Part shown: positions 12,830 to 64,000 of the stretch, piece by piece | Layout: each line of letters starts with the position of its first letter | How positions within the stretch are numbered: the first letter of the stretch is position 1 | Origin: Candidatus Poribacteria bacterium | Lineage (GTDB): Bacteria > Poribacteria > WGA-4E > WGA-3G | Assembly: GCA_965197475.1 (NCBI GenBank) | Contig: CBDANF010000003.1 | Span: 864,001-928,000 of the forward strand | DNA length: 64,000 nucleotides | Direction of reading: 5' to 3' | Program-made: the position numbers and the translations under genes | Notes under the pieces: generated by a model | Database searches by the model: none | Seen by the model: only the letters and a program-made list of their open reading frames with translations | What the model was told of the DNA's origin: nothing

Positions 12830-14794
12830 CTAAAGAGATAAGTGATTCTTATCTGGTATCTGTTGCTGAGACAAATCCCATAGTAGTATTATTCCGTCCC
12901 TACATCCACTGGCGAGTATTTGACCATCAGGACTGAACGCAACATCCTGGACAATACCAGTATGCCCAATGAGCGTGGATTCGCATTGTCCTGTAACAAC
13001 ATCCCATAAACCCACATTTTTACTCCCACTCACGAGAGTGGCACCATCTGGACTGAAACTCACACTACTGACTCCGCATTCAAATCCTGTGAAAATAGTT
13101 TTGTTTGCTCCAGAAACACTATCCCATAACCGCACTGTGCGGTCATTTCCCCCACTAGCGATCATGTGACCATCAGGGCTAAAAGCAATACTCCAGACAC
13201 AACCTGTATGCCCAATGAGGGTAGTTTTATGTACTCCAGAAACACTATCCCATAACCGCACTGTCTGATCATCACTTACACTAGCGAGTATGCGGCCATC
13301 TGGACTAAAACTGACATCCGTAACTCCGTTTTCATGCCCTATAAGAGTAATTATTTCCTGTCTATTAAGAACATCCCATAATCGTACCGTGTTATCTGGA
13401 TAATTTCCCCCACTAGCAAGTATGCGGCCATCAGGACTGAATGCAACACTTGATACAATGCCTGAATGCCCCTTAAATAGTCCTCCAAATAAGGTTTTTT
13501 GTTGTTCTGTAACTGTATCCCATAACCGTACTGTGTGATCCGAACCCCCACTGGCAAGTGTGCGGCCATCAGGACTGAACGCAACACCATGAACACTGAC
13601 TGTATGTCCTATAAGTGTAGACATATGCTGTCCTGTAGATGTGTCCCACAATCTAATTGATTCGTCCCAATCCCCGCTGGCAAGTATGCGGCCATCAGGA
13701 CTGAATGCAACGCTATTAACACTGGGCGTATGGCCTGCAAATATAACTTTAAGTCTTCCACTACCAGCGTTCCAGATTCGTACTGTGCTATCTGTTCCCC
13801 CGCTAGCTATTGCTCGACCATCAGTCGTAAAGGTGACATCTGTAACAATGCCTGTATGTCCAGTGAGTGTTTTACACTTTTTGCCAGTGAAAACATTCCA
13901 TAGCCGAATTTCGCTAGCACTTGCAACTGCAAGTTTAGTACCATCAGCACTAATATCAAGACTTTCAACACCATGCGGATGTTCTATTTCAAGTGTAGTT
14001 TTGCGTTGTCCTGTGGTCACGTCCCACAGAAGCAACATATTTTTTAACTTTCTTTCCCAAATTTCAATTGGATCATGTGAAAAAAAAGTATTACTTCCAC
14101 TTGCAAGAGTTTTACAATCAGGACTAAAGGCTATGCTGCATATTGAACTCATATGTCCTACAAGTGTAGTTTTGGGTTTTCCTGTGGATGTCTCCCATAA
14201 TCGCACTGTTTTATCTGAACTTCCACTTGCAATGGTAGCACCGTCGGATGAAAATGCAACCGCAGAAACACTATCTGTATGTTCAGTGAGTGTAGTCTTT
14301 AGTTTTCCTGTAGATACTTCCCACAACCGTACCGTGTTATCCAAACTCCCACTAGCAAGAATACTACCGTCGGGTGAAAATGCAACCGCAGAAACACTAT
14401 CTGTATGTTCAGTGAGTGTAGTCTTTAGTTTTCCTGTAGATACTTCCCACAACCGTACCGTGTTATCCGAACCACCACTCACTAGAAAATTACCATCGGA
14501 ATTAAAGGCAACACTTAATACCTCTCCAGTGTGTCCAACTAATAAACTAAGCTCTCCACCGGTACGTGCGTCATACATCCAAATCCCAATTGCACTAGAG
14601 ACAGCGAAGCAAGTACTATCAGGTGAACAAGCAATATTACCAGTAATTTTCCCTTTACCGAGCCGTGCTTTGACACCTTGAGGTAAATACCACTGCGGAG
14701 AATCTTGGGATAAAGTAGTTTGTAACCCGAAGAAAGAAGTGATGGATCGGTTAAATCGAGAAGAAAAAGTTGGTTTCATTGAGTAATCGTCCAT
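12830..14794 (-). CDS. WD40-repeat protein
   Basis: About 14 GH...VAFSPDG...ASG..D.TVRLWD repeats; N-terminal LPQGVKARLGKG. Confidence 0.95.
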   Translation of the reverse strand: MDDYSMKPTFSSRFNRSITSFFGLQTTLSQDSPQWYLPQGVKARLGKGKITGNIACSPDSTCFAVSSAIGIWMYDARTGGELSLLVGHTGEVLSVAFNSDGNFLVSGGSDNTVRLWEVSTGKLKTTLTEHTDSVSAVAFSPDGSILASGSLDNTVRLWEVSTGKLKTTLTEHTDSVSAVAFSSDGATIASGSSDKTVRLWETSTGKPKTTLVGHMSSICSIAFSPDCKTLASGSNTFFSHDPIEIWERKLKNMLLLWDVTTGQRKTTLEIEHPHGVESLDISADGTKLAVASASEIRLWNVFTGKKCKTLTGHTGIVTDVTFTTDGRAIASGGTDSTVRIWNAGSGRLKVIFAGHTPSVNSVAFSPDGRILASGDWDESIRLWDTSTGQHMSTLIGHTVSVHGVAFSPDGRTLASGGSDHTVRLWDTVTEQQKTLFGGLFKGHSGIVSSVAFSPDGRILASGGNYPDNTVRLWDVLNRQEIITLIGHENGVTDVSFSPDGRILASVSDDQTVRLWDSVSGVHKTTLIGHTGCVWSIAFSPDGHMIASGGNDRTVRLWDSVSGANKTIFTGFECGVSSVSFSPDGATLVSGSKNVGLWDVVTGQCESTLIGHTGIVQDVAFSPDGQILASGCRDGIILLWDLSQQQIPDKNHLSL

Positions 14795-15520: not shown

Positions 15521-16246
15521 TTAAGTGCGTGCTTGCAAACGTGCGATCTCTTCTCGGAGTTGTGCGACTTCTGCTTCCGCTTCCTGTCGTGCGGAGGCTT
15601 CCCGTTCTGCGCGTTCCTCGGCAGTATCCGCACGTATTGTCTCAGCTTCTGCACGTGTTCGCACCCACTCACTCGCAACCGGATCATAGATACCTATTTC
15701 CTGATGCCTTATGCGGAAATCTAAACCCAAGGACGATGAACGCAAACCACCATTCTCGCCAGGCGGAACCGGCACGTAGATGCCATCAACTAACTCAAAA
15801 CCCATTAGCGGTGATGGCAAATACAGACCCTCGGCATCATACAAGAAATAGTCTTGTATCTTGAGTGACGCGTAGATATCCATCTTGTCAGTTAAGTCAT
15901 TCTGATATGTGTTTTTGCTGCTGAACTCCATTACGAATTCTGGCACTTTACCCTCTTCCCACACCAAGTATGTCCGCCTTGCCTTCATTCCTATTCCGAA
16001 AGAGACAAGAACATCTGGAGATATAGACTTATTAGGTGAACCTTCCACATAATACATCAGAATATCACCAGAGATATAGACAGACGGGTTATGTGAGAAA
16101 TGTGCCTCAAGTGCTTCTAATGTCCAAAACAACTGATGCCTATGCAGATCGCTTGCTGCCATCGGTTTTCCATCCTCTTCAGGATAAAGTGTCAATGCAT
16201 CTGTGGGGACATAAGAGACCTGTTCCTTTTCTGCGTTAGTTGCCAT
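15521..16246 (-). CDS. Uma2-family endonuclease with an acidic coiled-coil tail
   Basis: YPEEDGKPMA, SPDVLV, VWEEGKVPEFVMEFSS, DYFLYD; tail RAEAE... Confidence 0.9.
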   Translation of the reverse strand: MATNAEKEQVSYVPTDALTLYPEEDGKPMAASDLHRHQLFWTLEALEAHFSHNPSVYISGDILMYYVEGSPNKSISPDVLVSFGIGMKARRTYLVWEEGKVPEFVMEFSSKNTYQNDLTDKMDIYASLKIQDYFLYDAEGLYLPSPLMGFELVDGIYVPVPPGENGGLRSSSLGLDFRIRHQEIGIYDPVASEWVRTRAEAETIRADTAEERAEREASARQEAEAEVAQLREEIARLQART

Positions 16247-16359
16247 AATGTTCTCCTTTACCAAAAGATGCGTGAAAACAACGGTTAAGATTTTTTGTGC
16301 TGTCTATATTGTGTCTTAATTATAGCCGAAAACTGAGAGGGTATCAAGCATTTAAGGTT

Positions 16360-24236: not shown

Positions 24237-25106
24237 TTAATGCGTGCCTACTTCAATTCGGGCATCCGCAATTGCTGCAATCTCACTGTCAATCTCAAAT
24301 CCGATAAAATCTCGTCCTTCCTTACGCGCTGCTATCCCAGTAGAACCTGACCCTGCAAAAGGATCGCAGACGACAGAACCTTCAGCAGAGAAAATTCTAA
24401 TTAAGTGTCGCAACAAAGGAACTGGTTTGGCAGCAATGTGCCCAAATTTCTCACGCGGTTTAGAAACGGGAATGACAGTTCCAGGAAAACGGTGTTTTTC
24501 AACAACCGGATCAGATACGTCAATCAGTCCAGTCTGATGTTGAAGCCAATTGTCCACGAACGTCCCTTCACGCGGGGACTGTGCCAAGATAACAAGTTCC
24601 ATCTGTGGCTTGAGTTGTGGTGTTTTCCTACCGCCCAAAGCCTTAATTATCCTCTCTTTTTCATCAACCGGCAGATCACGTTTGCGGACGAAGTGGTCTT
24701 GTGTAAACGCTTTAGCTTGTCCCTCATATCGCCACGCCAACATATCCCGTATTTCAAAACCTGCATCCTCTATAGCGAGTGTCGCTCGATGCGAAAGTCT
24801 TGGGTGCGAAAAACATAGCACAAACCCGCCCGGTTTGATAATTCTAAACCATTGTTCTGCTATCGGTTTTAAGAATCGATATAGATTATGTCCTTGAGCT
24901 CGGTCAAACTTCATCCCGACAGGCAACCCGCCCACAACACCTTTTTTCTGCCTGGATCGTATTCGTTGTGTATCCCAACTGTCATCCATTCCATCAAGGA
25001 AATAGGGCGGGTCAGTTAAAATGAGAGACACACTTTGCGGTGCAACTTTTGACATCCCTTTTCGGCAGTCTATACACTCGATCCGGGAGTCAAAACTTTT
25101 TTTCAT
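24237..25106 (-). CDS. Orphan beta-class N4/N6 DNA methyltransferase
   Basis: TDPPY precedes H...KP and DPFAGSGSTG. Confidence 0.9.
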   Translation of the reverse strand: MKKSFDSRIECIDCRKGMSKVAPQSVSLILTDPPYFLDGMDDSWDTQRIRSRQKKGVVGGLPVGMKFDRAQGHNLYRFLKPIAEQWFRIIKPGGFVLCFSHPRLSHRATLAIEDAGFEIRDMLAWRYEGQAKAFTQDHFVRKRDLPVDEKERIIKALGGRKTPQLKPQMELVILAQSPREGTFVDNWLQHQTGLIDVSDPVVEKHRFPGTVIPVSKPREKFGHIAAKPVPLLRHLIRIFSAEGSVVCDPFAGSGSTGIAARKEGRDFIGFEIDSEIAAIADARIEVGTH

Positions 25107-47825: not shown

Positions 47826-48879
47826 TCATTTGAGTTGTCCATTTTCTACATCAATAATTGCTCTTGCCAAAGCCCAATCTAATCGACGTCGGTAGTGTCC
47901 ATCGCGGCGTAATCCCTTGAACGCCGTCAAAAAAAATATCATGAGTTTTCTCACGGATCGTAGCTAAACGAACATTAAGTATGTCTATATCAACATGCCA
48001 CGGCACGCCAATTTTTGTAATTGAACGGCATTGGGTACGCACACGATACTCACCTAATTCTGCTGGGGCACAAAAACGGATAGAGGCAGAAACAGTATTA
48101 TCTATAGCGATGAGGCCTAAATTTCCTCTCGGTTGATTGAACACAATGCTACGATTGCAAGATGGCGGAGGCAGATGTTTCCTTAGTTCGCTGAGTTTTC
48201 CGAGTAGTTGATTGTTGCGCCACACCCTAATATCCGAGGTTACGTGCGGTGCAAACAGTGCAAGACCTACCGGATGTTCAGTGTCTTCAAACATATAACT
48301 TGTGTTTCTGCTTTTATTATCTTGCGTTGTTCCATTTTGTGTATGCGGAACTAAGGAGATAAAATCGCATAACCGATTCAGAAACAACCCACTCCGAATA
48401 AACGCCTCAGGGATAATTGCTGCGACCCATTCACAATGTGTTAAGCATTGCTCAAGAGCATATTTGTAAAGATCATCGTAGTTGGTCACTTCAGGAAATG
48501 GCAAACCGCGGCGTGTTGCGGAGTTGCGAGCAAGCCATGGCGGATTGGTAATACAAACATTAAATCCTTTTGGGAAGTCCGAGAGTGTATCACGTTGCAC
48601 GATCCCTTTTGCGCCTGGCTCAATATCGTAAAACACCCAATCTCGGCACCGCAAATGTGCTGAGTCAATTAATTTTGGAATATCCTTAGCACCTGCAAAA
48701 GGTTCTAAGGTGATCTGTTGTTCTAAATTTAACTCTTTTGCCCACGTCTGGAAAGATTTCAACTGAAACGGATTTCCGCGGGTGTAATAGCGTCCATTAG
48801 CACGTTTTCTGTCCATTTTGTTATCGTGTTGTTTATGCAAACTATATTTATATAATTGACCCTGGACAATTTCAAGCAT
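47826..48879 (-). CDS. Orphan amino-methyltransferase-like protein (gamma order), frameshifted near the C-terminus in a T8 tract
   Basis: GRYYT, LEPFAG, ITNPPW. With T7 the frame continues LTAFKGLRRDGHYRRRLDWALARAII to TGA at 47826. Confidence 0.7.
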
Positions 48880-51713: not shown

Positions 51714-52547
51714 TTAGATCATTACCGAAGCTAACCCTTCTGAAAAATGCCATGCTTCACTAAATATCGGTTCAATAACCCACTCACCAGATTTGTCAAT
51801 GTACCCATATTTACCATTTTTTTTGACAGCCGCAAGTCCTTCAGAAAACATGTCGGCTCTATCAAATTGCGGTTCAATGACGAGTGCCCCAGTTTTATCT
51901 GCATATCCATATTTTCCGTTCACTTTAACGACAACCAACCCTTCAGAGAAATAGGGAACATACGCTTCAAATTCTAATTCAAGAACCACCTGACCGGTTT
52001 TATCAATAAACACATGCTTCCCATCTTTTGTTTTAACATAAGCGTAGTCCTCGGAGAAGTCCCATGTGTCTTTAAAATGAAGTGGAATTATTAATTTACC
52101 ATTTTTATCAATATATCCCTGATCACACTCATCGTCTAATCCCCAGACACGTGCCAATCCTTCAGAGAAAGAGAACAGGGATTCATAAGGCGGAATGAAT
52201 GCCCACTCGCCATCGGTGTTAATATAACCAACGGTCGTTTCGGTTCTTACGAGGGCGAGACCGTCTAAGAAGTTCTCAGCATCTTTGTACGTTGGCGATA
52301 TTCTCATGGTGCCATCCTTATTGATATAACCGTATTTATCATCTACGAAAATAGGAGCTAACCCGTTACCAAATGGATGAGCACACTTATATTGAAGGGG
52401 AATGGCAAAATCACCTTGTTTGTCAATGAACCCGTATACGCCATCAATCTCAACTGCTGCTAACCCTTCGGTATAGAGGCAGCAATAATCAAACTGTGGG
52501 GGGATAACGAGCCTCCCACTTTTATCAATATAACCGTATTTTGACAT
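51714..52547 (-). CDS. WG-repeat protein G13 (277 aa)
   Basis: Eight GYIDK.G..VI.P.F.....FSEGLA.V repeats. Confidence 0.9.
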   Translation of the reverse strand: MSKYGYIDKSGRLVIPPQFDYCCLYTEGLAAVEIDGVYGFIDKQGDFAIPLQYKCAHPFGNGLAPIFVDDKYGYINKDGTMRISPTYKDAENFLDGLALVRTETTVGYINTDGEWAFIPPYESLFSFSEGLARVWGLDDECDQGYIDKNGKLIIPLHFKDTWDFSEDYAYVKTKDGKHVFIDKTGQVVLELEFEAYVPYFSEGLVVVKVNGKYGYADKTGALVIEPQFDRADMFSEGLAAVKKNGKYGYIDKSGEWVIEPIFSEAWHFSEGLASVMI

Positions 52548-52555
52548 ATTCAAAA

Positions 52556-53389
52556 TTAGACTTGCACCGCAGCTAATCCTTCCGAAAAAGGCCAGGCTTC
52601 CTCAAATCTCGGTTCAATAACCCACTCACCCGATTTGTCAATATAACCAAACTTACCATCTACAGCGACAGGCGCAAATCCTTCAGAAAAACACTCAACT
52701 TTGTCAAATCGTGGTTCAATCGTGACTTTCCCAGTTTTATCTACGTATCCATATTTCTGACCGATTCTAACACCAATTAATCCTTCAGAGAAGTAGGGTA
52801 GATCGATTCTAAAGCCTAATTCAAGAACCACCTGCCCAGTTTTATCAATAAACCCGCGTTTCCCTTCCTTTGTTTTAACATAGGCATAACCTTCGGAGAA
52901 ATCGGATGTGTCTCCAAAATGTGGTGGAATGACCTCCGCTCCCGTTTTATCAATATACCCTTGATTGATTTCCTCGCCTTCCAGAGAAACTCTCGCCAAT
53001 CCTTCAGAAAAGGAGTACATGCATATATAAGGAGGTATGAGCACCCACTCACCATCGGTGTTAATATAACCTTCGGTTGTGTCAGTTCTTACATGGGCAA
53101 GACCATTGACAAAATCATCAACAGTACAAAAGATCGGCGAGATAACTACCTCTCCAGACTTATTGATATACCCCCACTTGCCATCTCTGGAAATAGGAGC
53201 TAATCCCTCACTGAAACAATATGCCCATTCAAATTGGAGAGGGATCACAAAATCCCCATGTGTGTCAATGAACCCGGATTTTCCATCAACCTCTACAGCA
53301 GCTACGCCTTCGGTAAAATAGCCGGGAGTATCAAACTGTGGAGGAATGATGAACTTTCCGCTTTTATCAATGTAACCGTATTTCGACAT
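52556..53389 (-). CDS. WG-repeat protein G12 (277 aa)
   Basis: Eight repeats; start placed at the MSKYG ATG. Confidence 0.9.
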   Translation of the reverse strand: MSKYGYIDKSGKFIIPPQFDTPGYFTEGVAAVEVDGKSGFIDTHGDFVIPLQFEWAYCFSEGLAPISRDGKWGYINKSGEVVISPIFCTVDDFVNGLAHVRTDTTEGYINTDGEWVLIPPYICMYSFSEGLARVSLEGEEINQGYIDKTGAEVIPPHFGDTSDFSEGYAYVKTKEGKRGFIDKTGQVVLELGFRIDLPYFSEGLIGVRIGQKYGYVDKTGKVTIEPRFDKVECFSEGFAPVAVDGKFGYIDKSGEWVIEPRFEEAWPFSEGLAAVQV

Positions 53390-53458
53390 TTTCAAGACCT
53401 TCTTGATTGGCAAAGCGGTTTCCATCGCGAACGGATTGTACGGATTTACACAGAAACA

Positions 53459-54292
53459 TTAGATTATTACCGAAGCTAACCCCTCTGAAAAAAGTCCGGC
53501 TTCCTTGAATCTCGGTTCAATAACCCACTCACCCGATTTGTCAATGTAACCGGACTTACCATCAACAGCGGCAGACGCAAGCCCTTCAGAAAAATCACCG
53601 ACTTTATCAAATTTCGGTTCAATGACAAGTGAACCAGTTTTATCTGCGTATCCATATTTCCCATCGATTTTAACAGCAACCAATCCTTCAAAAAAGTAGG
53701 GACGATACGTTTCAAATGCTAAATCAAGAACCACCTGACCGGTTTTATCAATAAACACATGCTCCCCATCCTTGGTCTCAACATAGGCGTAACCTTCGGA
53801 AAAATTGTAGGTGTTTCTAAAGTGAGTGGGAATCACCTCCGCTCCCGTAATATCAATATACCCTTCATTGGATTCCTCTCCTTCTACCCAAACTATCGCT
53901 AATCCTTCAGAAAATGAGAAACAGCATACATAAGGCGGAATCAATGCCCATTCGCCATCGGTGTTAATATATCCTTCGGTAGTTTCGGTTATTACATGGG
54001 CAAGACCATCGGAGAAGTAAGTAGCATATTTAAACGTCGGCGGTATCACCACGGTGCCAGCTCTATTGATGTAACCGTATTTGCCATCTATGGAAACAGC
54101 GGCTAATCCTTCACTGAAATCATCTGCATATTCAAATTGGAAGGGAAGTGCAAACCCTCCGTGTTTGTCAATAAACCCGCATTTTCCATCAATCTCTACG
54201 GCGGCTACGCCTTCGGTATGATAACCGGGAGTATCAAACTGTGGAGGAATGATGAACTTTCCGCTTTTATCAATGTAACCGTATTTCGACAT
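53459..54292 (-). CDS. WG-repeat protein G11 (277 aa)
   Basis: Eight repeats; near-identical to G3 except the last repeat region. Confidence 0.9.
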   Translation of the reverse strand: MSKYGYIDKSGKFIIPPQFDTPGYHTEGVAAVEIDGKCGFIDKHGGFALPFQFEYADDFSEGLAAVSIDGKYGYINRAGTVVIPPTFKYATYFSDGLAHVITETTEGYINTDGEWALIPPYVCCFSFSEGLAIVWVEGEESNEGYIDITGAEVIPTHFRNTYNFSEGYAYVETKDGEHVFIDKTGQVVLDLAFETYRPYFFEGLVAVKIDGKYGYADKTGSLVIEPKFDKVGDFSEGLASAAVDGKSGYIDKSGEWVIEPRFKEAGLFSEGLASVII

Positions 54293-54361
54293 TTTCAAGA
54301 CCTTCTTGATTAGTAATGCGGTTTCCATCGCCAACGGATTGTACGGATTTACACAGAGACA

Positions 54362-55273
54362 TTAGATTATTACCGAAGCTAACCCCTCTGAAAAAAGTCC
54401 GGCTTCCTTGAATCTCGGTTCAATAACCCACTCACCCGATTTGTCAATGTAACCGGACTTACCATCTACAAAAAGCCCGCCTCGCCTGAATTTCGGATCA
54501 AAAACCCATTCACCCGATTTGTCAAAGTAACCATACTTACCATCTACAGCAACAGGTGCAAGCCCTTCAGAAAACCTCTCGACTCTATCAAATCTCGGTT
54601 CAATCACGACGCTCCCGGATTTATCTGCAAATCCGTATTGATGATCGATATTAACACCGATCAACCCTTCAGAGAAGTATGGAGGATAAAATATTAACGC
54701 GGATTCAAAAACCATCTGACCCGTTTTATCAATAAAACCACGTTTTCCTTCCTTTGTTTTAACGTAGGCATAACCTTCAGAGAAAGCAGACGTGTCTGCA
54801 AAGTGAGTGGGAATAACCTCCGCTCCCGTTATATCAATATACCCTTGATTGATTTCCTCGCCTTCCAGAGAAACTCTCGCCAATCCTTCAGAAAAGGAGT
54901 ACATGCATATATAAGGAGGTATGAGTGCCCACTCACCATCGGTGTTAATATAACCTTCGGTTGTTTCGGTCATTACATGGGCAAGACCATCGGAGAAGTA
55001 ATCAGCATCTTTAAACGTCGGCGGTATCACCACGGTGCCAACTCTATTGATGTAGCCGTATTTGCCATCTATGGAAACAGCGGCTAATCCTTCACTGAAA
55101 TCATCTGCATATTCAAATTGGAGGGGGATCACAAAATCACCCTGTTTGTCAATGAACCCGCATTTTCCATCAACCTCTACGGCGGTTAAACCTTCGGTAA
55201 AATAGCCGGGAGTATCAAACTGGGGTGGAATAACAATACTCCCACTTTTATCAATGTAACCGTATTTTGACAT
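54362..55273 (-). CDS. WG-repeat protein G10 (303 aa)
   Basis: Eight repeats plus one 26-aa partial repeat. Confidence 0.9.
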   Translation of the reverse strand: MSKYGYIDKSGSIVIPPQFDTPGYFTEGLTAVEVDGKCGFIDKQGDFVIPLQFEYADDFSEGLAAVSIDGKYGYINRVGTVVIPPTFKDADYFSDGLAHVMTETTEGYINTDGEWALIPPYICMYSFSEGLARVSLEGEEINQGYIDITGAEVIPTHFADTSAFSEGYAYVKTKEGKRGFIDKTGQMVFESALIFYPPYFSEGLIGVNIDHQYGFADKSGSVVIEPRFDRVERFSEGLAPVAVDGKYGYFDKSGEWVFDPKFRRGGLFVDGKSGYIDKSGEWVIEPRFKEAGLFSEGLASVII

Positions 55274-55345
55274 TTTCAAGACCTTCTTCATTAGTAATGC
55301 GGGTTTTCTTGACAAAACGGGCACCTATAGATTTATACCACCACA

Positions 55346-56191
55346 TTAGATTTTTACCGCAGCTAAACCCTCTGAAAAACAAGTAGCGTACCTAAATATC
55401 GGTTCAATCATCCACTTCCCAGTTTTGTCAATGTACCCATACTTCCCATTTATTTTGACAGGCGCGAGTCCTTCGGAAAACAAGTCGGCTTTATCAAATC
55501 GTGGTTCAATGACGAGTGCCCCAGTTTTGCCTGCATATCCATATTTTCCGTTCACCTTAACGACAACCAATCCTTCAGAGAAATAGGGAACATACGCTTC
55601 AAATTCTAATTCAAGTACCACTTGACCGGTTTTATCAATAAACATATACTTGCCTTGTTTTGTTTCAACATAGGCATAACCATCGGAGAAATCCCACGTG
55701 TCTTCAAAGCGGGATGGGATAATTAATTCACCGGCCTTATCAATATACCCTTCATCATATCCACCATCTTTTTCATTTTGGATACCGATTTGGGCAACTC
55801 CTTCTGAGAAATCATATAAAATTGTTTCACCGGATGGCGTGAGTGCCCATTCACCCGTAGTGTTAATATAGCCTTCAGTTGTGTCAGTTTTTGCACGAGC
55901 CAGACCATCGGAAAATACCCACGCCTCTCGAAAGGTGAGTGGAATGATTACCTTTCCAGACCTATTGATAAAACCGCACTTTTCATCTATGCAAATAGGT
56001 GCTAAACCATCGCTAAACCAAAGTGCCCATTTATATTGGAACGGGATCGCGAAATTACCTTGTTTGTCTATGAACCTGTACACTCCATCAATCTCCACAG
56101 CTGCTACACCTTCAGAATAACCGTAGCAGTCATCAAACTGTGGTGGAATGATGAACTTTCCGCTTTTATCAATGTAACCAAATTTTGACAT
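55346..56191 (-). CDS. WG-repeat protein G9 (281 aa)
   Basis: Eight repeats with a divergent middle. Confidence 0.9.
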   Translation of the reverse strand: MSKFGYIDKSGKFIIPPQFDDCYGYSEGVAAVEIDGVYRFIDKQGNFAIPFQYKWALWFSDGLAPICIDEKCGFINRSGKVIIPLTFREAWVFSDGLARAKTDTTEGYINTTGEWALTPSGETILYDFSEGVAQIGIQNEKDGGYDEGYIDKAGELIIPSRFEDTWDFSDGYAYVETKQGKYMFIDKTGQVVLELEFEAYVPYFSEGLVVVKVNGKYGYAGKTGALVIEPRFDKADLFSEGLAPVKINGKYGYIDKTGKWMIEPIFRYATCFSEGLAAVKI

Positions 56192-56260
56192 TTTCAAGAC
56201 CTTCTTGATTGGCAAAGCGGTTTCCATCACGAATGGATTGTACGGATTTACACAGAAACA

Positions 56261-57172
56261 TTAGATTATTACCGAAGCTAACCCCTCTGAAAAAAGTCCG
56301 GCTTCCTTGAATCTCGGTTCAATAACCCACTCACCAGTTTTGTCAATGTAACCAGACTTCCCATCTACAAAAAGCCCGCCTCGCCTGAATGTCGGATCAA
56401 AAACCCATTCACCCGATTTGTCAAAGTAACCATACTTACCATCTACAGCAACAGGTGCAAGCCCTTCAGAAAACCTCTCGACTCTATCAAATCTCGGTTC
56501 AATCACGACGCTCCCGGATTTATCTGCAAATCCGTATTGATGATCGATATTAACACCGATCAACCCTTCAGAGAAGTATGGAGGATAAAATATTAACGCG
56601 GATTCAAAAACCATCTGACCCGTTTTATCAATAAAACCACGTTTTCCTTCCTTTGTTTTAACGTAGGCATAACCTTCAGAGAAAGCAGACGTGTCTGCAA
56701 AGTGAGTGGGAATAACCTCCGCTCCCGTTATATCAATATACCCTTGATTGATTTCCTCGCCTTCCAGAGAAACTCTCGCCAATCCTTCAGAAAAGGAGTA
56801 CATGCATATATAAGGAGGTATGAGTGCCCACTCACCATCGGTGTTAATATAACCTTCGGTTGTTTCGGTCATTACATGGGCAAGACCATCGGAGAAGTAA
56901 TCAGCATCTTTAAACGTCGGCGGTATCACCACAGTGCCAACTCTATTGATGTAGCCGTATTTGCCATCTATGGAAACAGGTGCTAATCCTTCACTGAACC
57001 AATGTGCACACTCATATTGGAGGGGGATCACAAAATCACCCTGTTTGTCAATGAACCCGGATTTTCCATCAATCTCTACAGATGCTATGCCTTCAGAATA
57101 TTCGTAGCAGTCATCAAACTGTGGTGGAATGACGAAACTCCCACTTTTATCAATGTATCCGTATTTTGACAT
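56261..57172 (-). CDS. WG-repeat protein G8 (303 aa)
   Basis: Eight repeats plus one partial repeat. Confidence 0.9.
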   Translation of the reverse strand: MSKYGYIDKSGSFVIPPQFDDCYEYSEGIASVEIDGKSGFIDKQGDFVIPLQYECAHWFSEGLAPVSIDGKYGYINRVGTVVIPPTFKDADYFSDGLAHVMTETTEGYINTDGEWALIPPYICMYSFSEGLARVSLEGEEINQGYIDITGAEVIPTHFADTSAFSEGYAYVKTKEGKRGFIDKTGQMVFESALIFYPPYFSEGLIGVNIDHQYGFADKSGSVVIEPRFDRVERFSEGLAPVAVDGKYGYFDKSGEWVFDPTFRRGGLFVDGKSGYIDKTGEWVIEPRFKEAGLFSEGLASVII

Positions 57173-57180
57173 TTTCAAAA

Positions 57181-58122
57181 TTAGACTTGTACCAAAGCTA
57201 ACCCCTCCGAAAAACACCAAGCTTCCTTGAATCTCGGTTCAATCACCCACTCACCCGATTTGTCAATGTAACCATACTTAGCATCTACAAAAAGCCCGCC
57301 TCGCCTGAATGTCGGATCAGAAACCCATTCACCCGATTTGTCAAAGTAACCATACTTAGCATCTACAGCAGCAGGCGCAAGTCCTTCAGAAAAATCTCCG
57401 ACATTATCAAATCGCGGTTCAATCACGACGCTCCCGGATTTATCTGCAAATCCGTATTGATAATCGATATTAACACCGATCAACCCTTCAGAGAAGTATG
57501 GAGGATAAAATATTAACGCGGATTCAAGAACCATCTGACCAGTTTTATCAATAAAACAACGTTTTCCCTCCTTTGTTTTAACATAAGCATAACCTTCGGA
57601 GAAATCGGATATGCTTTCAAAGTCGGGTGGAATGACTATTGTCCCCATCCTATCAATATATCCCATATCCTCCCAATCCGTTTCTTCATTCCAGACACCA
57701 TGCCGAGCGAGGCCTTCAGAAAAACCGTATAACATGTGATCATCAGTGAATGTTAATGCTTTTTCACCAGATGTGTCAATATAGTGCTCATGTATAGCAC
57801 CATCAGTTGCCTTAGTTCTTACAAGGGCAAGACCATCGGAGAAGTAATCAGCATCTTTAAACGTCGGCGGTATCACCACGGTGCCGGCTTTATTGATGTA
57901 ACCGTATTTGTTGCCATCTATAGAAACAGCGGCTAATCCCTCACTGAAATCATATGCCGAGTGAAATTGGAGGGGAATTACAAAATCACCCTGCTTGTCA
58001 ATGAACCCGTATTTTCCATCAACCTCTACGGCGGCTATGCCATCGTTATAAAAGCCGGAAGTATCAAACTGCGGTGGAATGATGAACTTTCCGCTTTTAT
58101 CAATGTAACCGTATTTCGACAT
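57181..58122 (-). CDS. WG-repeat protein G7 (313 aa)
   Basis: Eight repeats plus one partial repeat; TKATDGAIHEH block. Confidence 0.9.
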   Translation of the reverse strand: MSKYGYIDKSGKFIIPPQFDTSGFYNDGIAAVEVDGKYGFIDKQGDFVIPLQFHSAYDFSEGLAAVSIDGNKYGYINKAGTVVIPPTFKDADYFSDGLALVRTKATDGAIHEHYIDTSGEKALTFTDDHMLYGFSEGLARHGVWNEETDWEDMGYIDRMGTIVIPPDFESISDFSEGYAYVKTKEGKRCFIDKTGQMVLESALIFYPPYFSEGLIGVNIDYQYGFADKSGSVVIEPRFDNVGDFSEGLAPAAVDAKYGYFDKSGEWVSDPTFRRGGLFVDAKYGYIDKSGEWVIEPRFKEAWCFSEGLALVQV

Positions 58123-58191
58123 TTTCAAGACCTTCTTGATTAGTAATGCGGTTTCCATCGCCAACGGATTGTACGGATTTACACAGAGACA

Positions 58192-59181
58192 TTAGATTAT
58201 TACCGCAGCTAACCCTTCTGAAAAAGGTTCGGCTTCCTTAAATCTCGGTTCAATAACCCACTCACCCGACTTGTCAATGTAACCATACTTACCTTCTACA
58301 AAAAACCCGGTTCCCTTGAATCTCGGTTCAATAACCCACTCTCCTGATTTGTCAATGTAACCGGACTTCCCATCTACAAAAAGCCCGCCTCGCCTGAATT
58401 TCGGATCAAAAACCCATTCACCCGATTTGTCAAAGTAACCATACTTACCATCTACAGCAACAGGTGCAAGCCCTTCAGAAAACCTCTCGACTCTATCAAA
58501 TCTCGGTTCAATCACGACGCTCCCGGATTTATCTGCAAATCCGTATTGATGATCGATATTAACACCGATCAACCCTTCAGAGAAGTATGGAGGATAAAAT
58601 ATTAACGCGGATTCAAAAACCATCTGACCCGTTTTATCAATAAAACCACGTTTTCCTTCCTTTGTTTTAACGTAGGCATAACCTTCAGAGAAAGCAGACG
58701 TGTCTGCAAAGTGAGTGGGAATAACCTCCGCTCCCGTTTTATCAATATACCCTTGATTGATTTCCTCGCCTTCCAGAGAAACTCTCGCCAATCCTTCAGA
58801 AAAGGAGTACATGCATATATAAGGAGGTATGAGTGCCCACTCACCATCGGTGTTAATATAACCTTCGGTTGTTTCGGTCATTACATGGGCAAGACCATCG
58901 GAGAAGTAATCAGCATCTTTAAACGTCGGCGGTATCACCACGGTGCCAACTCTATTGATGTAGCCGTATTTGCCATCTATGGAAACAGCGGCTAATCCTT
59001 CACTGAAATCATCTGCATATTCAAATTGGAAGGGAATTACAAAATCACCTTGTTTATCAATGAAACCACATTTCCCATCAACTTCAACAGCAGCTACGCC
59101 ATCGGTATAATAGCCAGGAGTATCAAACTGTGGTGGAATGATGAACTTTCCGCTTTTATCAATGTAACCATATTTTGACAT
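58192..59181 (-). CDS. WG-repeat protein G6 (329 aa)
   Basis: Eight repeats plus two partial repeats. Confidence 0.9.
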   Translation of the reverse strand: MSKYGYIDKSGKFIIPPQFDTPGYYTDGVAAVEVDGKCGFIDKQGDFVIPFQFEYADDFSEGLAAVSIDGKYGYINRVGTVVIPPTFKDADYFSDGLAHVMTETTEGYINTDGEWALIPPYICMYSFSEGLARVSLEGEEINQGYIDKTGAEVIPTHFADTSAFSEGYAYVKTKEGKRGFIDKTGQMVFESALIFYPPYFSEGLIGVNIDHQYGFADKSGSVVIEPRFDRVERFSEGLAPVAVDGKYGYFDKSGEWVFDPKFRRGGLFVDGKSGYIDKSGEWVIEPRFKGTGFFVEGKYGYIDKSGEWVIEPRFKEAEPFSEGLAAVII

Positions 59182-59189
59182 TTTCAAAA

Positions 59190-60104
59190 TTAGACTTGTA
59201 CCGAAGCTAACCCCTCTGAAAAAAGTCCGGCTTCCTTGAATCTCGGTTCAATAACCCACTCACCAGTTTTGTCAATGTAACCGGACTTCCCATCTACAAA
59301 AAGCCCGCCTCGCCTGAATGTCGGATCAAAAACCCATTCACCCGATTTGTCAAAGTAACCATACTTAGCATCTACAACAACAGCCGCAAGCCCTTCAGAA
59401 AAATGCCCAACTCTATCAAATCTCGGTTCAATCACGACTCTTCCTGTTTTATCTGCAAATCCGTATTTCTGATCGATCTTAACACCGATCAACCCTTCAG
59501 AAAAGTAGGAATAACCATCGACCTTAAACGCTAATTCGAGAACCATCTGACCCGTTTTATCAATAAACCCGCGTTTCCCTTCCTTTGTTTTAACATAGGC
59601 ATAACCTTCGGAGAAATCGGAGGTGTCTCTAAAGTGAGCGGGAATAACCTCCGCTCCCGTTATATCAATATACCCTTCATTGGATTCCTCTCCTTCTACC
59701 CAAACTATCGCTAATCCTTCAGAAAATGAGAAACAGCATACATAAGGCGGAATCAATGCCCATTCGCCATCGGTGTTAATATATCCTTCGGTAGTTTCGG
59801 TTATTACATGGGCAAGACCATCGGAGAAGTAAGTAGCATATTTAAACGTCGGCGGTATCACCACGGTGCCAGCTCTATTGATGTAACCGTATTTGCCATC
59901 TATGGAAACAGCGGCTAATCCTTCACTGAAATCATCTGCATATTCAAATTGGAAGGGAATTACAAAATCACCTTGTTTATCAATGAAACCACATTTCCCA
60001 TCAACTTCAACAGCAGCTACGCCATCGGTATAATAGCCGGGAGTATCAAAACGTGGAGGAATGATGAACTTTCCGTTTTTATCAATGTAACCATATTTAG
60101 ACAT
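59190..60104 (-). CDS. WG-repeat protein G5 (304 aa)
   Basis: Eight repeats plus one partial repeat. Confidence 0.9.
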   Translation of the reverse strand: MSKYGYIDKNGKFIIPPRFDTPGYYTDGVAAVEVDGKCGFIDKQGDFVIPFQFEYADDFSEGLAAVSIDGKYGYINRAGTVVIPPTFKYATYFSDGLAHVITETTEGYINTDGEWALIPPYVCCFSFSEGLAIVWVEGEESNEGYIDITGAEVIPAHFRDTSDFSEGYAYVKTKEGKRGFIDKTGQMVLELAFKVDGYSYFSEGLIGVKIDQKYGFADKTGRVVIEPRFDRVGHFSEGLAAVVVDAKYGYFDKSGEWVFDPTFRRGGLFVDGKSGYIDKTGEWVIEPRFKEAGLFSEGLASVQV

Positions 60105-60174
60105 TTTCAAGACCTTCTTCATTAGTAATGCGGGTTTCCATCGCGAATGGATTGTACGGATTTACACAGAAATA

Positions 60175-61008
60175 TTAGATTTTTACCGCAGCTAACCCCT
60201 CTGAAAAACAAGTAGCGTACCTAAATATCGGTTCAATCATCCACTTCCCAGTTTTGTCAATGTACCCATACTTCCCATTTATTTTGACAGCCGCAAGTCC
60301 TTCAGAAAACATGTCGGCTCTATCAAATTGCGGTTCAATGACGAGTGCCCCAGTTTTGTCTGCATATCCATATTTTCCGTTCACCTTAACGACAACCAAC
60401 CCTTCAGAGAAATAGGGAACATACGCTTCAAATGCTAATTCAAGAACCACCTGACCGGTTTTATCAATAAACACCTGCTTCCCATCTTTTGTTTTAACAT
60501 AAGCGTAGTCCTCGGAGAAGTCCCATGTGTCTTTAAAATGAAGTGGAATTATTAATTTACCATTTTTATCAATATATCCCTGATCACACTCATCGTCTAA
60601 TCCCCAGACACGTGCCAATCCTTCAGAGAAAGAGAACAGGGATTCATAAGGCGGAATGAATGCCCACTCGCCATCGGTGTTAATATAACCAACGGTCGTT
60701 TCGGTTCTTACGAGGGCGAGACCGTCTAAGAAGTTCTCAGCATCTTTGTACGTTGGCGATATTCTCATGGTGCCATCCTTATTGATATAACCGTATTTAT
60801 CATCTACGAAAATAGGAGCTAACCCGTTACCAAATGGATGAGCACACTTATATTGAAGGGGAATGGCAAGATCACCTTGTTTGTTAATAAATCCGTATAC
60901 GCCATCAATCTCCACTGCTGCTAACCCTTCGGTATGACCGTAGCAATAATCAAACTGTGGTGGAATGACGAAACTCCCACTTTTATCAATGTATCCGTAT
61001 TTTGACAT
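60175..61008 (-). CDS. WG-repeat protein G4 (277 aa)
   Basis: Eight repeats; body like G13, C-terminus like G9. Confidence 0.9.
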   Translation of the reverse strand: MSKYGYIDKSGSFVIPPQFDYCYGHTEGLAAVEIDGVYGFINKQGDLAIPLQYKCAHPFGNGLAPIFVDDKYGYINKDGTMRISPTYKDAENFLDGLALVRTETTVGYINTDGEWAFIPPYESLFSFSEGLARVWGLDDECDQGYIDKNGKLIIPLHFKDTWDFSEDYAYVKTKDGKQVFIDKTGQVVLELAFEAYVPYFSEGLVVVKVNGKYGYADKTGALVIEPQFDRADMFSEGLAAVKINGKYGYIDKTGKWMIEPIFRYATCFSEGLAAVKI

Positions 61009-61016
61009 TTTCAAAA

Positions 61017-61850
61017 TTAGACTTGTACCAAAGCTAACCCCTCCGAAAAACGCCAAGCTTCACTAAATCTCGGTTCAATAACCCACTCTCCTGATTTGTC
61101 AAAGTACCCATACTTTCCGTCTACAGCAACTGCCGCAAGTCCTTCAGAAAAATCACCGACTTTATCAAATTTCGGTTCAATGACAAGTGAACCAGTTTTA
61201 TCTGCGTATCCATATTTCCCATCGATTTTAACAGCAACCAATCCTTCAAAAAAGTAGGGACGATACGTTTCAAATGCTAAATCAAGAACCACCTGACCGG
61301 TTTTATCAATAAACACATGCTCCCCATCCTTGGTCTCAACATAGGCGTAACCTTCGGAAAAATTGTAGGTGTTTCTAAAGTGAGTGGGAATCACCTCCGC
61401 TCCCGTAATATCAATATACCCTTCATTGGATTCCTCTCCTTCTACCCAAACTATCGCTAATCCTTCAGAAAATGAGAAACAGCATACATAAGGCGGAATC
61501 AATGCCCATTCGCCATCGGTGTTAATATATCCTTCGGTAGTTTCGGTTATTACATGGGCAAGACCATCGGAGAAGTAAGTAGCATATTTAAACGTCGGCG
61601 GTATCACCACGGTGCCAGCTCTATTGATGTAACCGTATTTGCCATCTATGGAAACAGCGGCTAATCCTTCACTGAAATCATCTGCATATTCAAATTGGAA
61701 GGGAAGTGCAAACCCTCCGTGTTTGTCAATAAACCCGCATTTTCCATCAATCTCTACGGCGGCTACGCCTTCGGTATGATAACCGGGAGTATCAAACTGT
61801 GGAGGAATGATGAACTTTCCGCTTTTATCAATGTAACCGTATTTCGACAT
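61017..61850 (-). CDS. WG-repeat protein G3 (277 aa)
   Basis: Eight repeats. Confidence 0.9.
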   Translation of the reverse strand: MSKYGYIDKSGKFIIPPQFDTPGYHTEGVAAVEIDGKCGFIDKHGGFALPFQFEYADDFSEGLAAVSIDGKYGYINRAGTVVIPPTFKYATYFSDGLAHVITETTEGYINTDGEWALIPPYVCCFSFSEGLAIVWVEGEESNEGYIDITGAEVIPTHFRNTYNFSEGYAYVETKDGEHVFIDKTGQVVLDLAFETYRPYFFEGLVAVKIDGKYGYADKTGSLVIEPKFDKVGDFSEGLAAVAVDGKYGYFDKSGEWVIEPRFSEAWRFSEGLALVQV

Positions 61851-61919
61851 TTTCAAGACCTTCTTGATTAGTAATGCGGTTTCCATCGCCAACGGATTGT
61901 ACGGATTTACACAGAGACA

Positions 61920-62858
61920 TTAGATTATTACCGAAGCTAACCCCTCTGAAAAAAGTCCGGCTTCCTTGAATCTCGGTTCAATAACCCACTCACCCGACTT
62001 GTCAATGTAACCGGACTTACCATCTACAAAAAGCCCGCCTCGTCTGAATTTCGGATCAAAAACCCATTCACCCGATTTGTCAAAGTAACCATACTTAGCA
62101 TCTACAACAACAGCCGCAAGCCCTTCAGAAAAATGTCCGACATTATCAAATCGCGGTTCAATCACGACGCTCCCGGATTTATCTGCAAATCCGTATTGAT
62201 GATCGATATTAACACCGATCAACCCTTCAGAGAAGTATGGAGGATAAAATATTAACGCGGATTCAAGAACCATCTGACCAGTTTTATCAATACACCCACT
62301 TTTTCCCTCCTTTGTTTTAACATAAGCATAACCTTCGGAGAAATCGGATATGCTTTCAAAGTCGGGTGGAATGACTATTGTCCCCATCCTATCAATATAT
62401 CCCATATCAAACGTATCTTCTTTTTCATTCCAGACACCATGCCGAGCGAGGCCTTCAGAAAAACCGTATAACATGTGATCATCAGTGAATGTTAATGCTT
62501 TTTCACCAGATTTGTCAATATAGTGCTCATGTATAGCACCATCAGTTGCCTTGGTTCTTACAAGGGCAAGACCATCGGAGAAGTAAGTAGCATATTTAAA
62601 CGTCGGCGGTATCACTACAGTGCCGGATCTATTGATGTAACCGTATTTGCCATCTATTGAAACAACGGCAAATCCTTCGCTGAAATCATCTACATATTCA
62701 AATTGGAGGGGAATCACAAAATCACCCCGCTTGTCAATGAAACCGCATTTTCCATCAATCTCTACAGATGCTACGCCTTCGATATGATAACCGGGAGTAT
62801 CAAACTGTGGAGGAATGATGAACTTTCCGCTTTTATCAATGTAACCGTATTTCGACAT
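61920..62858 (-). CDS. WG-repeat protein G2 (312 aa)
   Basis: Eight repeats plus one partial repeat; middle like G7. Confidence 0.9.
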   Translation of the reverse strand: MSKYGYIDKSGKFIIPPQFDTPGYHIEGVASVEIDGKCGFIDKRGDFVIPLQFEYVDDFSEGFAVVSIDGKYGYINRSGTVVIPPTFKYATYFSDGLALVRTKATDGAIHEHYIDKSGEKALTFTDDHMLYGFSEGLARHGVWNEKEDTFDMGYIDRMGTIVIPPDFESISDFSEGYAYVKTKEGKSGCIDKTGQMVLESALIFYPPYFSEGLIGVNIDHQYGFADKSGSVVIEPRFDNVGHFSEGLAAVVVDAKYGYFDKSGEWVFDPKFRRGGLFVDGKSGYIDKSGEWVIEPRFKEAGLFSEGLASVII

Positions 62859-62927
62859 TTTCAAGACCTTCTTGATTAGTAATGCGGTTTCCATCGCCAA
62901 CGGATTGTACGGATTTACACAGAGACA

Positions 62928-63839
62928 TTAGATTATTACCGCAGCTAACCCTTCTGAAAAAGGTTCGGCTTCCTTAAATCTCGGTTCAATAACCCACTCA
63001 CCCGACTTGTCAATGTAACCATACTTACCTTCTACAAAAAACCCGGTTCCCTTGAATCTCGGTTCAATAACCCACTCTCCTGATTTGTCAAAGTACCCAT
63101 ACTTTCCGTCTACAGCAACTGCCGCAAGTCCTTCAGAAAAATCACCGACTTTATCAAATTTCGGTTCAATGACAAGTGAACCAGTTTTATCTGCGTATCC
63201 ATATTTCCCATCGATTTTAACAGCAACCAATCCTTCAAAAAAGTAGGGACGATACGTTTCAAATGCTAAATCAAGAACCACCTGACCGGTTTTATCAATA
63301 AACACATGCTCCCCATCCTTGGTCTCAACATAGGCGTAACCTTCGGAAAAATTGTAGGTGTTTCTAAAGTGAGTGGGAATCACCTCCGCTCCCGTAATAT
63401 CAATATACCCTTCATCGAACTCCTCTCCTTCCAACGAAACTTTCGCCAATCCTTCAGAAAAGGAGTAAATATCTCCATAAGGAGGTATGAGTACCAATTC
63501 GCCTTCGGTGTTAATATACCCTTCGGTAGTTTCGGTTATTACATGGGCAAGACCATCGAAGAAGTAATAAGCATTTTTAAACGTCGGCAGTATCACTACA
63601 GTGCCGGATCTATTGATGTAACCGTATTTGCCATCTATGGAAACAGCGGCTAATCCTTCACTGAAATCCTCTGCATATTCAAATTGGAGGGGAAGTGCAA
63701 ACCCTCCGTGTTTGTCAATAAACCCGCATTTTCCATCAATCTCTACGGCGGCTACGCCTTCGGTATGATAACCGGGAGTATCAAACCGTGGCGGAATAAC
63801 AATTCTCCCACTTTTATCAATATAGCCAAATTTCGACAT
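62928..63839 (-). CDS. WG-repeat protein G1 (303 aa), first of the array
   Basis: GAGGT RBS before ATG 63839; eight repeats plus one partial repeat. Confidence 0.9.
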   Translation of the reverse strand: MSKFGYIDKSGRIVIPPRFDTPGYHTEGVAAVEIDGKCGFIDKHGGFALPLQFEYAEDFSEGLAAVSIDGKYGYINRSGTVVILPTFKNAYYFFDGLAHVITETTEGYINTEGELVLIPPYGDIYSFSEGLAKVSLEGEEFDEGYIDITGAEVIPTHFRNTYNFSEGYAYVETKDGEHVFIDKTGQVVLDLAFETYRPYFFEGLVAVKIDGKYGYADKTGSLVIEPKFDKVGDFSEGLAAVAVDGKYGYFDKSGEWVIEPRFKGTGFFVEGKYGYIDKSGEWVIEPRFKEAEPFSEGLAAVII

Positions 63840-63862
63840 CTTATGTACCTCTTTTTTAGCAA

Positions 63863-63895
63863 GCGGGGCGTAGCATCTGTGTCGCACGCCCCGCT
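63863..63895. terminator. Hairpin between the upstream gene and the WG array
   Basis: AGCGGGGCGT...ACGCCCCGCT; on the minus strand it is followed by TGCT and then an A run rather than a U tract. Confidence 0.4.
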
Positions 63896-63914
63896 TTTCA
63901 AACGTTAGAAGATT

Positions 63915-64000
63915 CTAAGGTGTTAGGATAAGCAACCCACCAACAGGTGCAGCAGGGGTGGGTAATAGCGCAATGCCAATGAGCGTTTTTCCACCTTTGT
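63915..64000 (-). CDS. Possible 3' end of a gene that starts beyond the window
   Basis: Open frame KGGKTLIGIALLPTPAAPVGGLLILTP followed by a stop. Confidence 0.3.
   Translation of the reverse strand, partial: KGGKTLIGIALLPTPAAPVGGLLILTP

Follow-up and report, generated by a model that had tools for sequence, protein, structure and literature searches.

Lamprey VLR genes and Borrelia vlsE each have one expression site that is supplied from many silent partial cassettes by unidirectional, programmed conversion. The acquired interbacterial defence clusters of Bacteroidales carry orphan immunity genes without toxins in dense host-associated communities; they are heterogeneous and reside on mobile elements. 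Here we analyse a stretch of 64,000 nucleotides (the window) from the genome of an uncultured sponge symbiont, Candidatus Poribacteria, which contains thirteen tandem genes for WG-repeat proteins of the WG_beta_rep family (PF14903) and, at its far end, the 3' part of a gene for an Ntox37-like toxin. The original prediction, made from the letters of the window, took the thirteen genes for a candidate shuffled binding-protein repertoire, conceptually like VLR or vls-type diversification.

The WG array resembles VLR and vlsE in its surface-loop variation on a repeat scaffold and in the copying of segments between similar sequences. Beyond such recombination the likeness is not supported, as the array consists of thirteen complete genes with tracts running over gene borders; no silent cassettes, no single expression site and, among the open reading frames scanned, no diversification enzyme were found, and nothing suggests a programme. 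It also differs from a diversity-generating retroelement (DGR), in that no reverse transcriptase (RT) family was matched by the scanned open reading frames (ORFs) of at least 150 aa in the window and 8 kb beyond it. Unlike the Bacteroidales defence clusters, the array is a homogeneous, recombining, single-family locus on the chromosome, and a sister species has one copy at the equivalent site.

Another comparison is with the poly-immunity loci of polymorphic toxin systems, in which immunity genes of SUKH, Imm or HEAT type stand in tandem (Zhang et al. 2012, PMC3482391; here and below, statements on this survey refer to excerpts of it). Shared with those loci, as the excerpts describe them, are small export-signal-free genes directly behind a C-terminal toxin domain, tandem diverged paralogues, a patchy distribution, orphan C-terminus modules in one related genome and the company of SUKH and Barstar genes in another. 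The array departs from them in its 8-bladed propeller fold, as modelled, in having thirteen copies of one family, in conversion within the array and in a broken cognate toxin; according to the excerpted 2012 survey, no beta-propeller was then known among immunity proteins. With Ntox37 (PF15535) systems the toxin-like neighbour shares an HGGPH[WY]DV core with a preceding basic residue, a C-terminal position in a secreted protein and a small gene behind it. The Poribacteria branch has, in addition, an N-terminal PKD-like domain behind the signal peptide and a hydrophobic tail of about 90 aa, and its partner is a WG protein, not Imm32 (listed as the Ntox37 partner in the excerpts of PMC3482391), a HEAT or TPR protein or a small unknown protein. 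We lean towards reading the locus as an expanded, actively recombining array of cytoplasmic beta-propellers that may provide poly-immunity against Poribacteria-specific, Ntox37-type secreted toxins.

Thirteen WG-repeat genes as recombinant mosaics

Thirteen head-to-tail ORFs, all on the minus strand, occupy 51714-63887 in the ORF list, and are numbered here G1 to G13 in the direction of transcription. Every one of the encoded proteins matches WG_beta_rep in the Pfam scan (E 1.2e-76 to 5.8e-92), scoring 252.7-301.7 bits over 6-9 matched stretches each against a gathering cutoff of 25.6 bits. The only other matches at E <= 0.01 are borderline or sub-threshold hits to EAGR_box, so that a KWG-Leptospira-type scaffold, as originally proposed, was not shown. 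As predicted, all thirteen genes are intact, with neither a stop nor a frameshift, and none are identical, pairwise nucleotide identities ranging from 68.3% to 96.9%. The proposal that they share one 8-repeat frame did not hold: there are eight units in G3, G4, G9, G11, G12 and G13, nine in G1, G2, G5, G7, G8 and G10, and ten in G6. The extra units are short ones of 26 residues near the C-terminus that lack the SEGLAxV strand (58270-58430 in G6, with equivalents in G1, G2, G5, G7, G8 and G10).

The proteins begin at a conserved ATG with the motif MSK[YF]GYIDK and carry no hydrophobic leader or visible signal peptide. Spacers fall into two classes, one of 69-72 nt (75 nt for G1) with a purine run resembling a ribosome-binding site, the other of 8 nt, found before G4, G6, G8 and G13. 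The array holds exactly thirteen genes, with G1 as its boundary, and a tblastn search with all thirteen proteins found no further WG copy outside it in the 5.70 Mb, 3-contig assembly. The 75 nt that separate G1 from the toxin-like gene include, judging by the sequence, a G+C-rich hairpin (minus strand, approximately 63860..63900) unlike the spacers inside the array; it might serve as an attenuator or processing site. Promoter-like sites (31 versus 29.7 in shuffled sequence) and terminator-like sites (13 versus 11.1) are in no excess. Ten contigs from RNA runs could be placed on G3, G4, G6, G11 and G13, eight of them at >= 99% identity, which is only a hint of transcription, as DNA may be present in such libraries. 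One RNA run sharing words with the array is labelled as a sponge metagenome.

We regard it as close to certain that the array members are recombinant mosaics, formed by gene conversion and/or unequal crossover between copies, with unequal crossover probably playing a part. The mosaicism is real and statistically overwhelming. In the codon alignment nearest neighbours change along the genes, with tracts that are 100% identical. The pairwise homoplasy index (PHI) was 0.255, versus a permutation mean of 0.434 +/- 0.005 (z = -35; reached in 0 of 2000 permutations), and a permutation test on the longest identical run gave p <= 0.001 in 42 of the 78 gene pairs. Maximum-likelihood trees of four segments conflict with bootstrap support of 94-100%: G8 clusters with G4, G9 and G13 at the 5' end and with G6 and G10 in the middle, while G4 goes with G13 along most of the gene and with G9 at the 3' end. 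In approximately unbiased (AU) tests, all four segments reject one another's trees (12 of 12 at p < 0.001). A Hudson-Kaplan Rm of 68 is inflated by multiple hits at such divergence and is not used as a count of events. Of the checks that the original prediction had proposed, the PHI test was significant, and trees made by segment, where it had asked for trees by repeat, are incongruent. Its account of gene conversion or unequal crossover between copies, drawn from shared blocks nearly identical in DNA, strongly diverged alternatives and groupings that conflict along the gene, is supported.

Shared blocks are identical in DNA while alternative alleles lie far apart, with an overall synonymous divergence (dS) of about 0.55. 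An exact-match script found 15 exact repeats of at least 150 bp in the array, the longest of 857 bp. This tract crosses a gene boundary: copy A (61141..61997, minus strand) takes in the 3' end of G2, the spacer and the 5' 752 nt of G3, and the same stretch recurs as copy B (53583..54439, minus strand) over the 3' end of G10, the spacer and the 5' 752 nt of G11. Perfectly identical tracts as a whole span 100-857 bp, some of them across gene boundaries, and the units of exchange are therefore not repeat-sized blocks or cassettes as had been supposed. Ordinary homologous recombination in a tandem array of similar paralogues explains the shuffling.

The pattern can be followed gene by gene. G1 (62928..63839; PF14903 E 2.3e-87), the first gene after the toxin-like gene, starts at the conserved ATG, is identical to G3 and G11 in alignment columns 496-765 and has a 3' end identical to that of G6. 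G2 (61920..62858) is mostly like G7 (57181..58122) and has a 113-bp exact tract in common with G6, G8 and G10. The pair with 96.9% identity is G3 (61017..61850) and G11 (53459..54292). G4 (60175..61008) shares an exact tract of 394 bp with G13 (51714..52547), and its 3' end matches G9 (55346..56191), the most divergent copy. The clearest mosaic is G5 (59190..60104), which equals G6 (58192..59181) in columns 91-225, G3 and G11 in columns 226-450, G2 in columns 766-810 and G8 in columns 946-990. G8 (56261..57172) falls with G4, G9 and G13 in segment A (100%) and with G6 and G10 in segment C (98%), and has an exact tract of 541 bp in common with G10 (54362..55273); G12 (52556..53389) equals G6, G8 and G10 only in columns 316-450.

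Variation is focused on a single loop in each unit, at the five residues before the [FY]-S/T-E/D-G motif. Each loop occurs in 5-8 alleles, and the thirteen genes carry thirteen distinct 8-loop combinations. The motif groupings reported in the original prediction are all exact: in repeat 4, ICMYSF in G6, G8, G10 and G12, VCCFSF in G3, G5 and G11, ESLFSF in G4 and G13, and DDHMLYGF in G2 and G7; in repeat 6, ALIFYPPYF in G2, G6, G7, G8 and G10, FETYRPYF in G1, G3 and G11, and FEAYVPYF in G4, G9 and G13; in repeat 8, KEAGLF in G2, G5, G8, G10 and G11, RYATCF in G4 and G9, and KEAEPF in G1 and G6. Independent assortment of these alleles holds for distant loops, allele sharing at R8 correlating with that at all others at -0.03 to 0.19, but fails for nearby ones (R5-R7 0.93, R5-R6 0.67), as expected for conversion tracts a few hundred bases in length.

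The ratio of nonsynonymous to synonymous divergence (dN/dS) is 0.83 on the 40 loop codons, exceeding 1 in 22 of the 78 pairs, versus 0.25 on the 301 scaffold codons, with dS at about 0.55 in both classes; the variable loops thus evolve about three times faster than the scaffold. From this dS it follows that the alleles are old and the identical tracts recent, and the scaffold ratio indicates purifying selection in all copies, whose thirteen frames have stayed open despite such divergence.

An AlphaFold2 (AF2) model of G13 from a 48-sequence alignment is all-beta, with pLDDT 96.5 and pTM 0.90. Foldseek matches it best to 8-bladed propellers (E 1e-9 to 1e-7, TM 0.5-0.64), and VIA-align superposes 246-269 of its 277 residues on such propellers (Z 10-12.5, root-mean-square deviation 3.6-4.7). 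The matched structures are BamB, the DPP4 propeller and the designed proteins Tako8, Ika8 and Bagel8. On this model, made for the 8-unit copy G13, the array proteins are predicted to be 8-bladed beta-propellers. The variable loop joins the second and third strand of every unit, and by strand alternation, rather than by coordinates, all eight loops should lie on the same face of the propeller. A sequence search of the PDB with G13 returned a best match at chance level (E 0.14), and in the ESM Atlas, with PF14903 excluded, the top match was DUF5046 with a score of 0.87, too low to be followed.

The WG_beta_rep family is very large, with at least 7700 matches at E <= 1e-10 among 8000 candidates scored. 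It has neither an assigned function nor a solved structure, and the papers searched mention it in tables only. The subfamily of the array occurs at E <= 1e-40 in 17 of the 112 family genomes, with 13 matches in the present genome, five in genome G045, four in G057 and at most three in the others. With G6 as query against a set of 41 relatives, full-length copies were found in 3 of 24 same-genus genomes. In the sister-species genome G016 the order PSCyt2/PSD1, DUF1501, one WG gene, PPC-domain gene and Rieske gene matches the flanks of the array, from which we conclude that the thirteen copies grew at a single-copy site of the sister species. The expansion of the array is lineage-specific. In a tree with relatives the array splits into at least two deep lineages: lineage I comprises G1, G2, G3, G5, G6, G7, G10, G11 and G12 with the syntenic WG gene of G016, and lineage II contains G4, G9 and G13 with the WG copies of genomes G011 and G007.

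Contigs from public runs of other studies show junctions that differ from those of the array. The end of G8 with its spacer is joined to a G1-like body in runs of two studies, and a G2-like 5' part is joined to a G8-like 3' part in one, which implies that the array is arranged differently in other populations. An array identical across strains, which the original prediction had named as evidence against itself, is thus not found everywhere, on the basis of short contigs. A further junction, 53182->60181, had only 20 letters on one side and was disregarded, and uncovered parts of the array in runs X4, X5 and X12 prove nothing.

A toxin-like neighbour and its linkage to WG genes

The 3' end and stop codon of the Ntox37-like gene lie at 63915..64000 on the minus strand, and its frame runs on beyond the window to G000:C3:928889. 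As most of the gene is outside the window, it escaped the original prediction, as did the recurrence of the toxin-WG pair in related genomes, which points to what the proposed binding repertoire would bind. This 324-codon frame, on the same strand as the array, ends 27 nt before the longest G1 frame and 75 nt before the conserved ATG of G1. Its start codon is missing, as is most of its signal peptide, some 13 initial residues by comparison with homologues, and the frame opens immediately next to the stop codon of an IS630-like transposase that has DDE_3 and HTH domains. The transposase, about 0.9 kb past the end of the window (L002:1090-2195 = G000:C3:928890-929995), is read in two frames, one for the HTH part and one for the DDE_3 part. 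The ends of the element showed no terminal inverted repeat of 12 nt, and the 200 nt examined upstream of it contain no signal-peptide-like frame that could be the missing 5' piece. The lost 5' end and the deviations at D38 and W56 of alignment A5, both of them nearly invariant columns, together suggest that this copy of the toxin gene is decaying.

The four closest full-length homologues are 334-341 aa long, begin with a signal peptide and show 54-61% identity over the C-terminal query; all four carry a precomputed PF15535 annotation, and one of them, P0002, scores 37.4 bits versus a cutoff of 27.8. Their layout is a signal peptide, a PKD-like region, the Ntox37 domain and a tail. Of 80 metagenomic relatives of the toxin core, 30 were scanned, with 28 matching Ntox37 at E <= 0.001 and 20 lying above the cutoff. 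The domain is C-terminal in metagenomic proteins of up to about 1800 aa, and ends 0-73 residues from the C-terminus in 78 of the 80 loci, the other two having returned negative offsets. In the core HGGPH[WY]DV...NV, the H, G, H, D, V and N are invariant across 37 sequences. K210 and H219-x-D221 are invariant in a 6-sequence alignment of the toxin, and in wider alignments the K is nearly invariant and the H and D invariant. The Ntox37 signature in the excerpts of PMC3482391 consists of a conserved E, [KR] and Hx[DH]; K210 and H219-x-D221 fit the latter two elements as printed there, and the printed E has no assigned counterpart. A model of the toxin C-terminus (pLDDT 85.9) had no PDB match at E < 1 in Foldseek.

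The hydrophobic C-terminal tail of the toxin family is highly conserved and comprises about 45 residues in two segments. In about one third of the Ntox37-like metagenomic relatives the core is followed by a hydrophobic tail 60-70 residues long, and in one of them (the locus of L041:4824-5396) the tail matches Tox-WTIP at 47.9 bits. The combination of Ntox37 with a membrane tail was not met in the excerpts of PMC3482391. The whole toxin frame matches 19 of the 24 genus genomes at E <= 0.01, nearly always through the PKD-like domain. This domain (residues 9-150) stands behind signal peptides in many proteins of the genus with differing C-terminal parts that have no Pfam match (L016, L017, L018, L022); these could be further secreted proteins with variable C-termini.

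A search of the 112 family genomes with the toxin C-terminus gave 8 places, spread over four genomes and two genera, and at seven of these places a WG gene follows within about 100 nt, with a conserved spacing of about 60-85 nt. The counts are 1 of 1 in the present genome, G016 (G016:C192) and G007, and 4 of 5 in G045. The place in G007 consists of a toxin tail remnant and a WG gene with an internal TAG. In G045 (L038), a full toxin gene, an orphan C-terminus of 121 aa and a tail remnant follow one another, each with a WG gene behind it, an arrangement of cassettes that polymorphic toxin loci typically show. The G045 gene at L038:5097-5789 is a toxin homologue that is naturally intact. Within the window, repetition is confined to the WG genes, and there are no orphan toxin C-termini.

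Near the toxin-WG modules of G045 there are also tandem paralogues of about 100 aa (L040:283-1623 and L039:9510-10145), which contain a hydrophobic stretch and finish in a Gly/Ala-rich part, often with DSSS at the terminus, and a recurrent membrane-anchored protein of about 260 aa (L038:9211-9981, L039:6980-7750, L040:6238-7029). The two proteins scanned from these surroundings match no Pfam family.

In G032, a genome from another family of the order, the neighbours of the WG homologue are a SUKH-1 gene and its two paralogues, a gene for Barstar and HEAT-repeat genes, a group that looks like a heterogeneous poly-immunity island. The three paralogues, at L028:4544-6192 and 13862-14458, are of about 200 aa with a common C-terminal motif, one of them passing the Pfam SUKH-1 threshold, and flank the Barstar, WG and HEAT genes. 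In 29 other Ntox37 loci the slot behind the toxin is taken by HEAT proteins (9), a TPR protein (1, with 2 weak cases) and small unknown genes (17), which are repeat-protein or small genes of a type seen in immunity.

Possible functions of the array and competing explanations

In the poly-immunity reading, which we favour by a modest degree, a WG protein would bind the toxin domain in the cytoplasm and block it. Extra copies with different loop combinations would broaden protection against the toxin variants of competing strains in the sponge microbiome, and homologous recombination in the array would yield new combinations as a by-product, with no dedicated mechanism. As the host's own toxin gene would now be inactive, the array would represent orphan immunity. 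A further step, that the array is a germline-encoded, anticipatory antidote repertoire in which the loops set toxin-binding specificity and conversion yields new combinations that are selected against new Ntox37 variants, we advance only tentatively and think rather doubtful; if so, bacteria would have a counterpart to recombining receptor repertoires, on a beta-propeller immunity fold not recognised before.

Should the link to the toxin be true, WG_beta_rep would gain its first testable function and the beta-propeller would join the known immunity folds, and the array would offer a natural case of recombination in a poly-immunity array that can be read base by base; it would also indicate that uncultured sponge symbionts fight one another with toxins. 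Should the link be false, the locus would still be a well-documented, unsurprising case of concerted evolution in a tandem array. Judged by titles and the openings of abstracts in a non-exhaustive search, no propeller immunity protein is described among the literature matches listed. No paper naming Poribacteria stands among the matches listed for polymorphic toxins, immunity proteins or toxin-antitoxin systems in that group. PADLOC assigned no family to two WG proteins, the toxin frame, the PPC protein or the methylase.

A number of observations weigh against the poly-immunity reading. Binding and neutralisation of the toxin by WG proteins are predicted from gene context; a complex prediction for G1 with toxin residues 170-285 scored 0.03 versus a mark of 0.32, with controls not folded, and weighs neither way. 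The toxin copy in the window scores 17.4 bits on PF15535 (E 0.0068), below the gathering cutoff of 27.8, and departs from the two nearly invariant columns mentioned above. Imm32 is the Ntox37 partner listed in the excerpts of PMC3482391, and a WG hidden Markov model found no match in the 80 metagenomic Ntox37-like loci, so that WG proteins are not a general partner of Ntox37. The toxin-adjacent WG genes of G045 and G016 form a clade apart from both lineages of the array, and no toxin lies beside the syntenic single WG gene of G016, the three copies of G011, one copy of G007 or 12 of the 13 array copies. Tox-WTIP is a pore-forming toxin family according to the excerpts of PMC3482391, and a soluble antidote in the cytoplasm would be a poor match for a toxin that acts on membranes. 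A dN/dS of 0.83 in the loops is no proof of positive selection. Elsewhere in the order, more distant WG_beta_rep proteins from other families have signal- or lipoprotein-like N-termini and unrelated contexts, which points to a fold used as a generic scaffold. Lastly, the order of the thirteen copies rests on one assembly, the public contigs being short.

Several of these points would also suit an ordinary paralogue array under concerted evolution whose function is unrelated to the toxin and whose propellers bind another ligand, such as a host or symbiosis factor, a metabolite-related partner or an envelope component, with the toxin adjacent by chance or through rearrangement by the insertion sequence (IS). 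We see this as a serious but minority possibility. It would account for the toxin-free single WG gene between DUF1501 and the PPC-domain gene in G016, for the IS right at the junction with the toxin gene, for the absence of WG genes from all 80 other Ntox37 loci, and for a very large family without known function whose distant members are secreted or lipoprotein-like and stand in housekeeping contexts. It leaves unexplained the toxin-then-WG order at seven of eight places in four genomes of two genera with its narrow spacing, and the one homologue in a SUKH/Barstar/HEAT island; the patchy presence of the subfamily in 17 of 112 family genomes is like that of accessory conflict genes, and the lack of export signals speaks against a role at the host surface. 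The tight linkage of toxin and WG genes and the conserved hydrophobic tail would suit WG proteins that act not as antidotes but as chaperones or adaptors, keeping the toxin until it is exported and perhaps covering its tail, an idea that we consider unlikely. The toxin homologues have ordinary N-terminal signal peptides, so that no cytoplasmic holding step is needed, adaptor genes usually lie upstream of their effector, and holding the toxin gives no reason for thirteen diversified copies, for toxin-less orphans or for keeping the array after the toxin gene was broken.

That the order of the array or some of its mosaics are assembly chimeras of strains co-existing in the metagenome also seems unlikely to us, even though exact repeats of up to 857 bp could mislead an assembler and the assembly is rated 6.97% contaminated. 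In the public run that covers the array best, contigs run off into unlike sequence at five places in the array, which indicates that related variants co-exist in the sample; in the same run 100 of 103 contigs agree with the assembly to at least 99% and every one of the 30 bins has cover, although this run is possibly the source sample and none of its contigs listed on the array exceeds 576 nt. A contig of 4.17 Mb encloses the array, individual genes are already mosaic at sub-read distances, and all thirteen frames are intact. Programmed diversification of the VLR, vls or DGR kind, deliberately assembling new binders, is most improbable: it is recommended by the outcome only, in combinatorial loop alleles on a repeat scaffold with a different combination in each gene. 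Every copy has its own start and spacer, with no partial or silent cassettes and no single expression site; the tracts cross gene boundaries; the alleles are old rather than newly mutated; and promoter- and terminator-like sites are no commoner than in shuffled sequence. Neither an RT nor a tyrosine or serine recombinase was found among the 56 ORFs scanned (those of at least 150 aa and the thirteen genes) in the window and 8 kb beyond. The original statement that the window has no recombinase or RT is correct in this respect, but overlooks a DDE transposase.

Other features of the window

That transposase, of the DDE_Tnp_4 family, lies at 994-1941 on the plus strand; the remaining features described here are on the minus strand. 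Two DNA-methylase-like genes are found inside an otherwise respiratory gene cluster: an N6_N4_Mtase gene at 24237-25106, between two COX3-like genes, and a DNA-methylase-like gene with a weak Eco57I-like match at 47851-48879, between the Rieske and PPC genes. A putative endonuclease of the Uma2 family is encoded at 15521-16264, and a 654-aa WD40 protein with ten repeats at 12830-14794.

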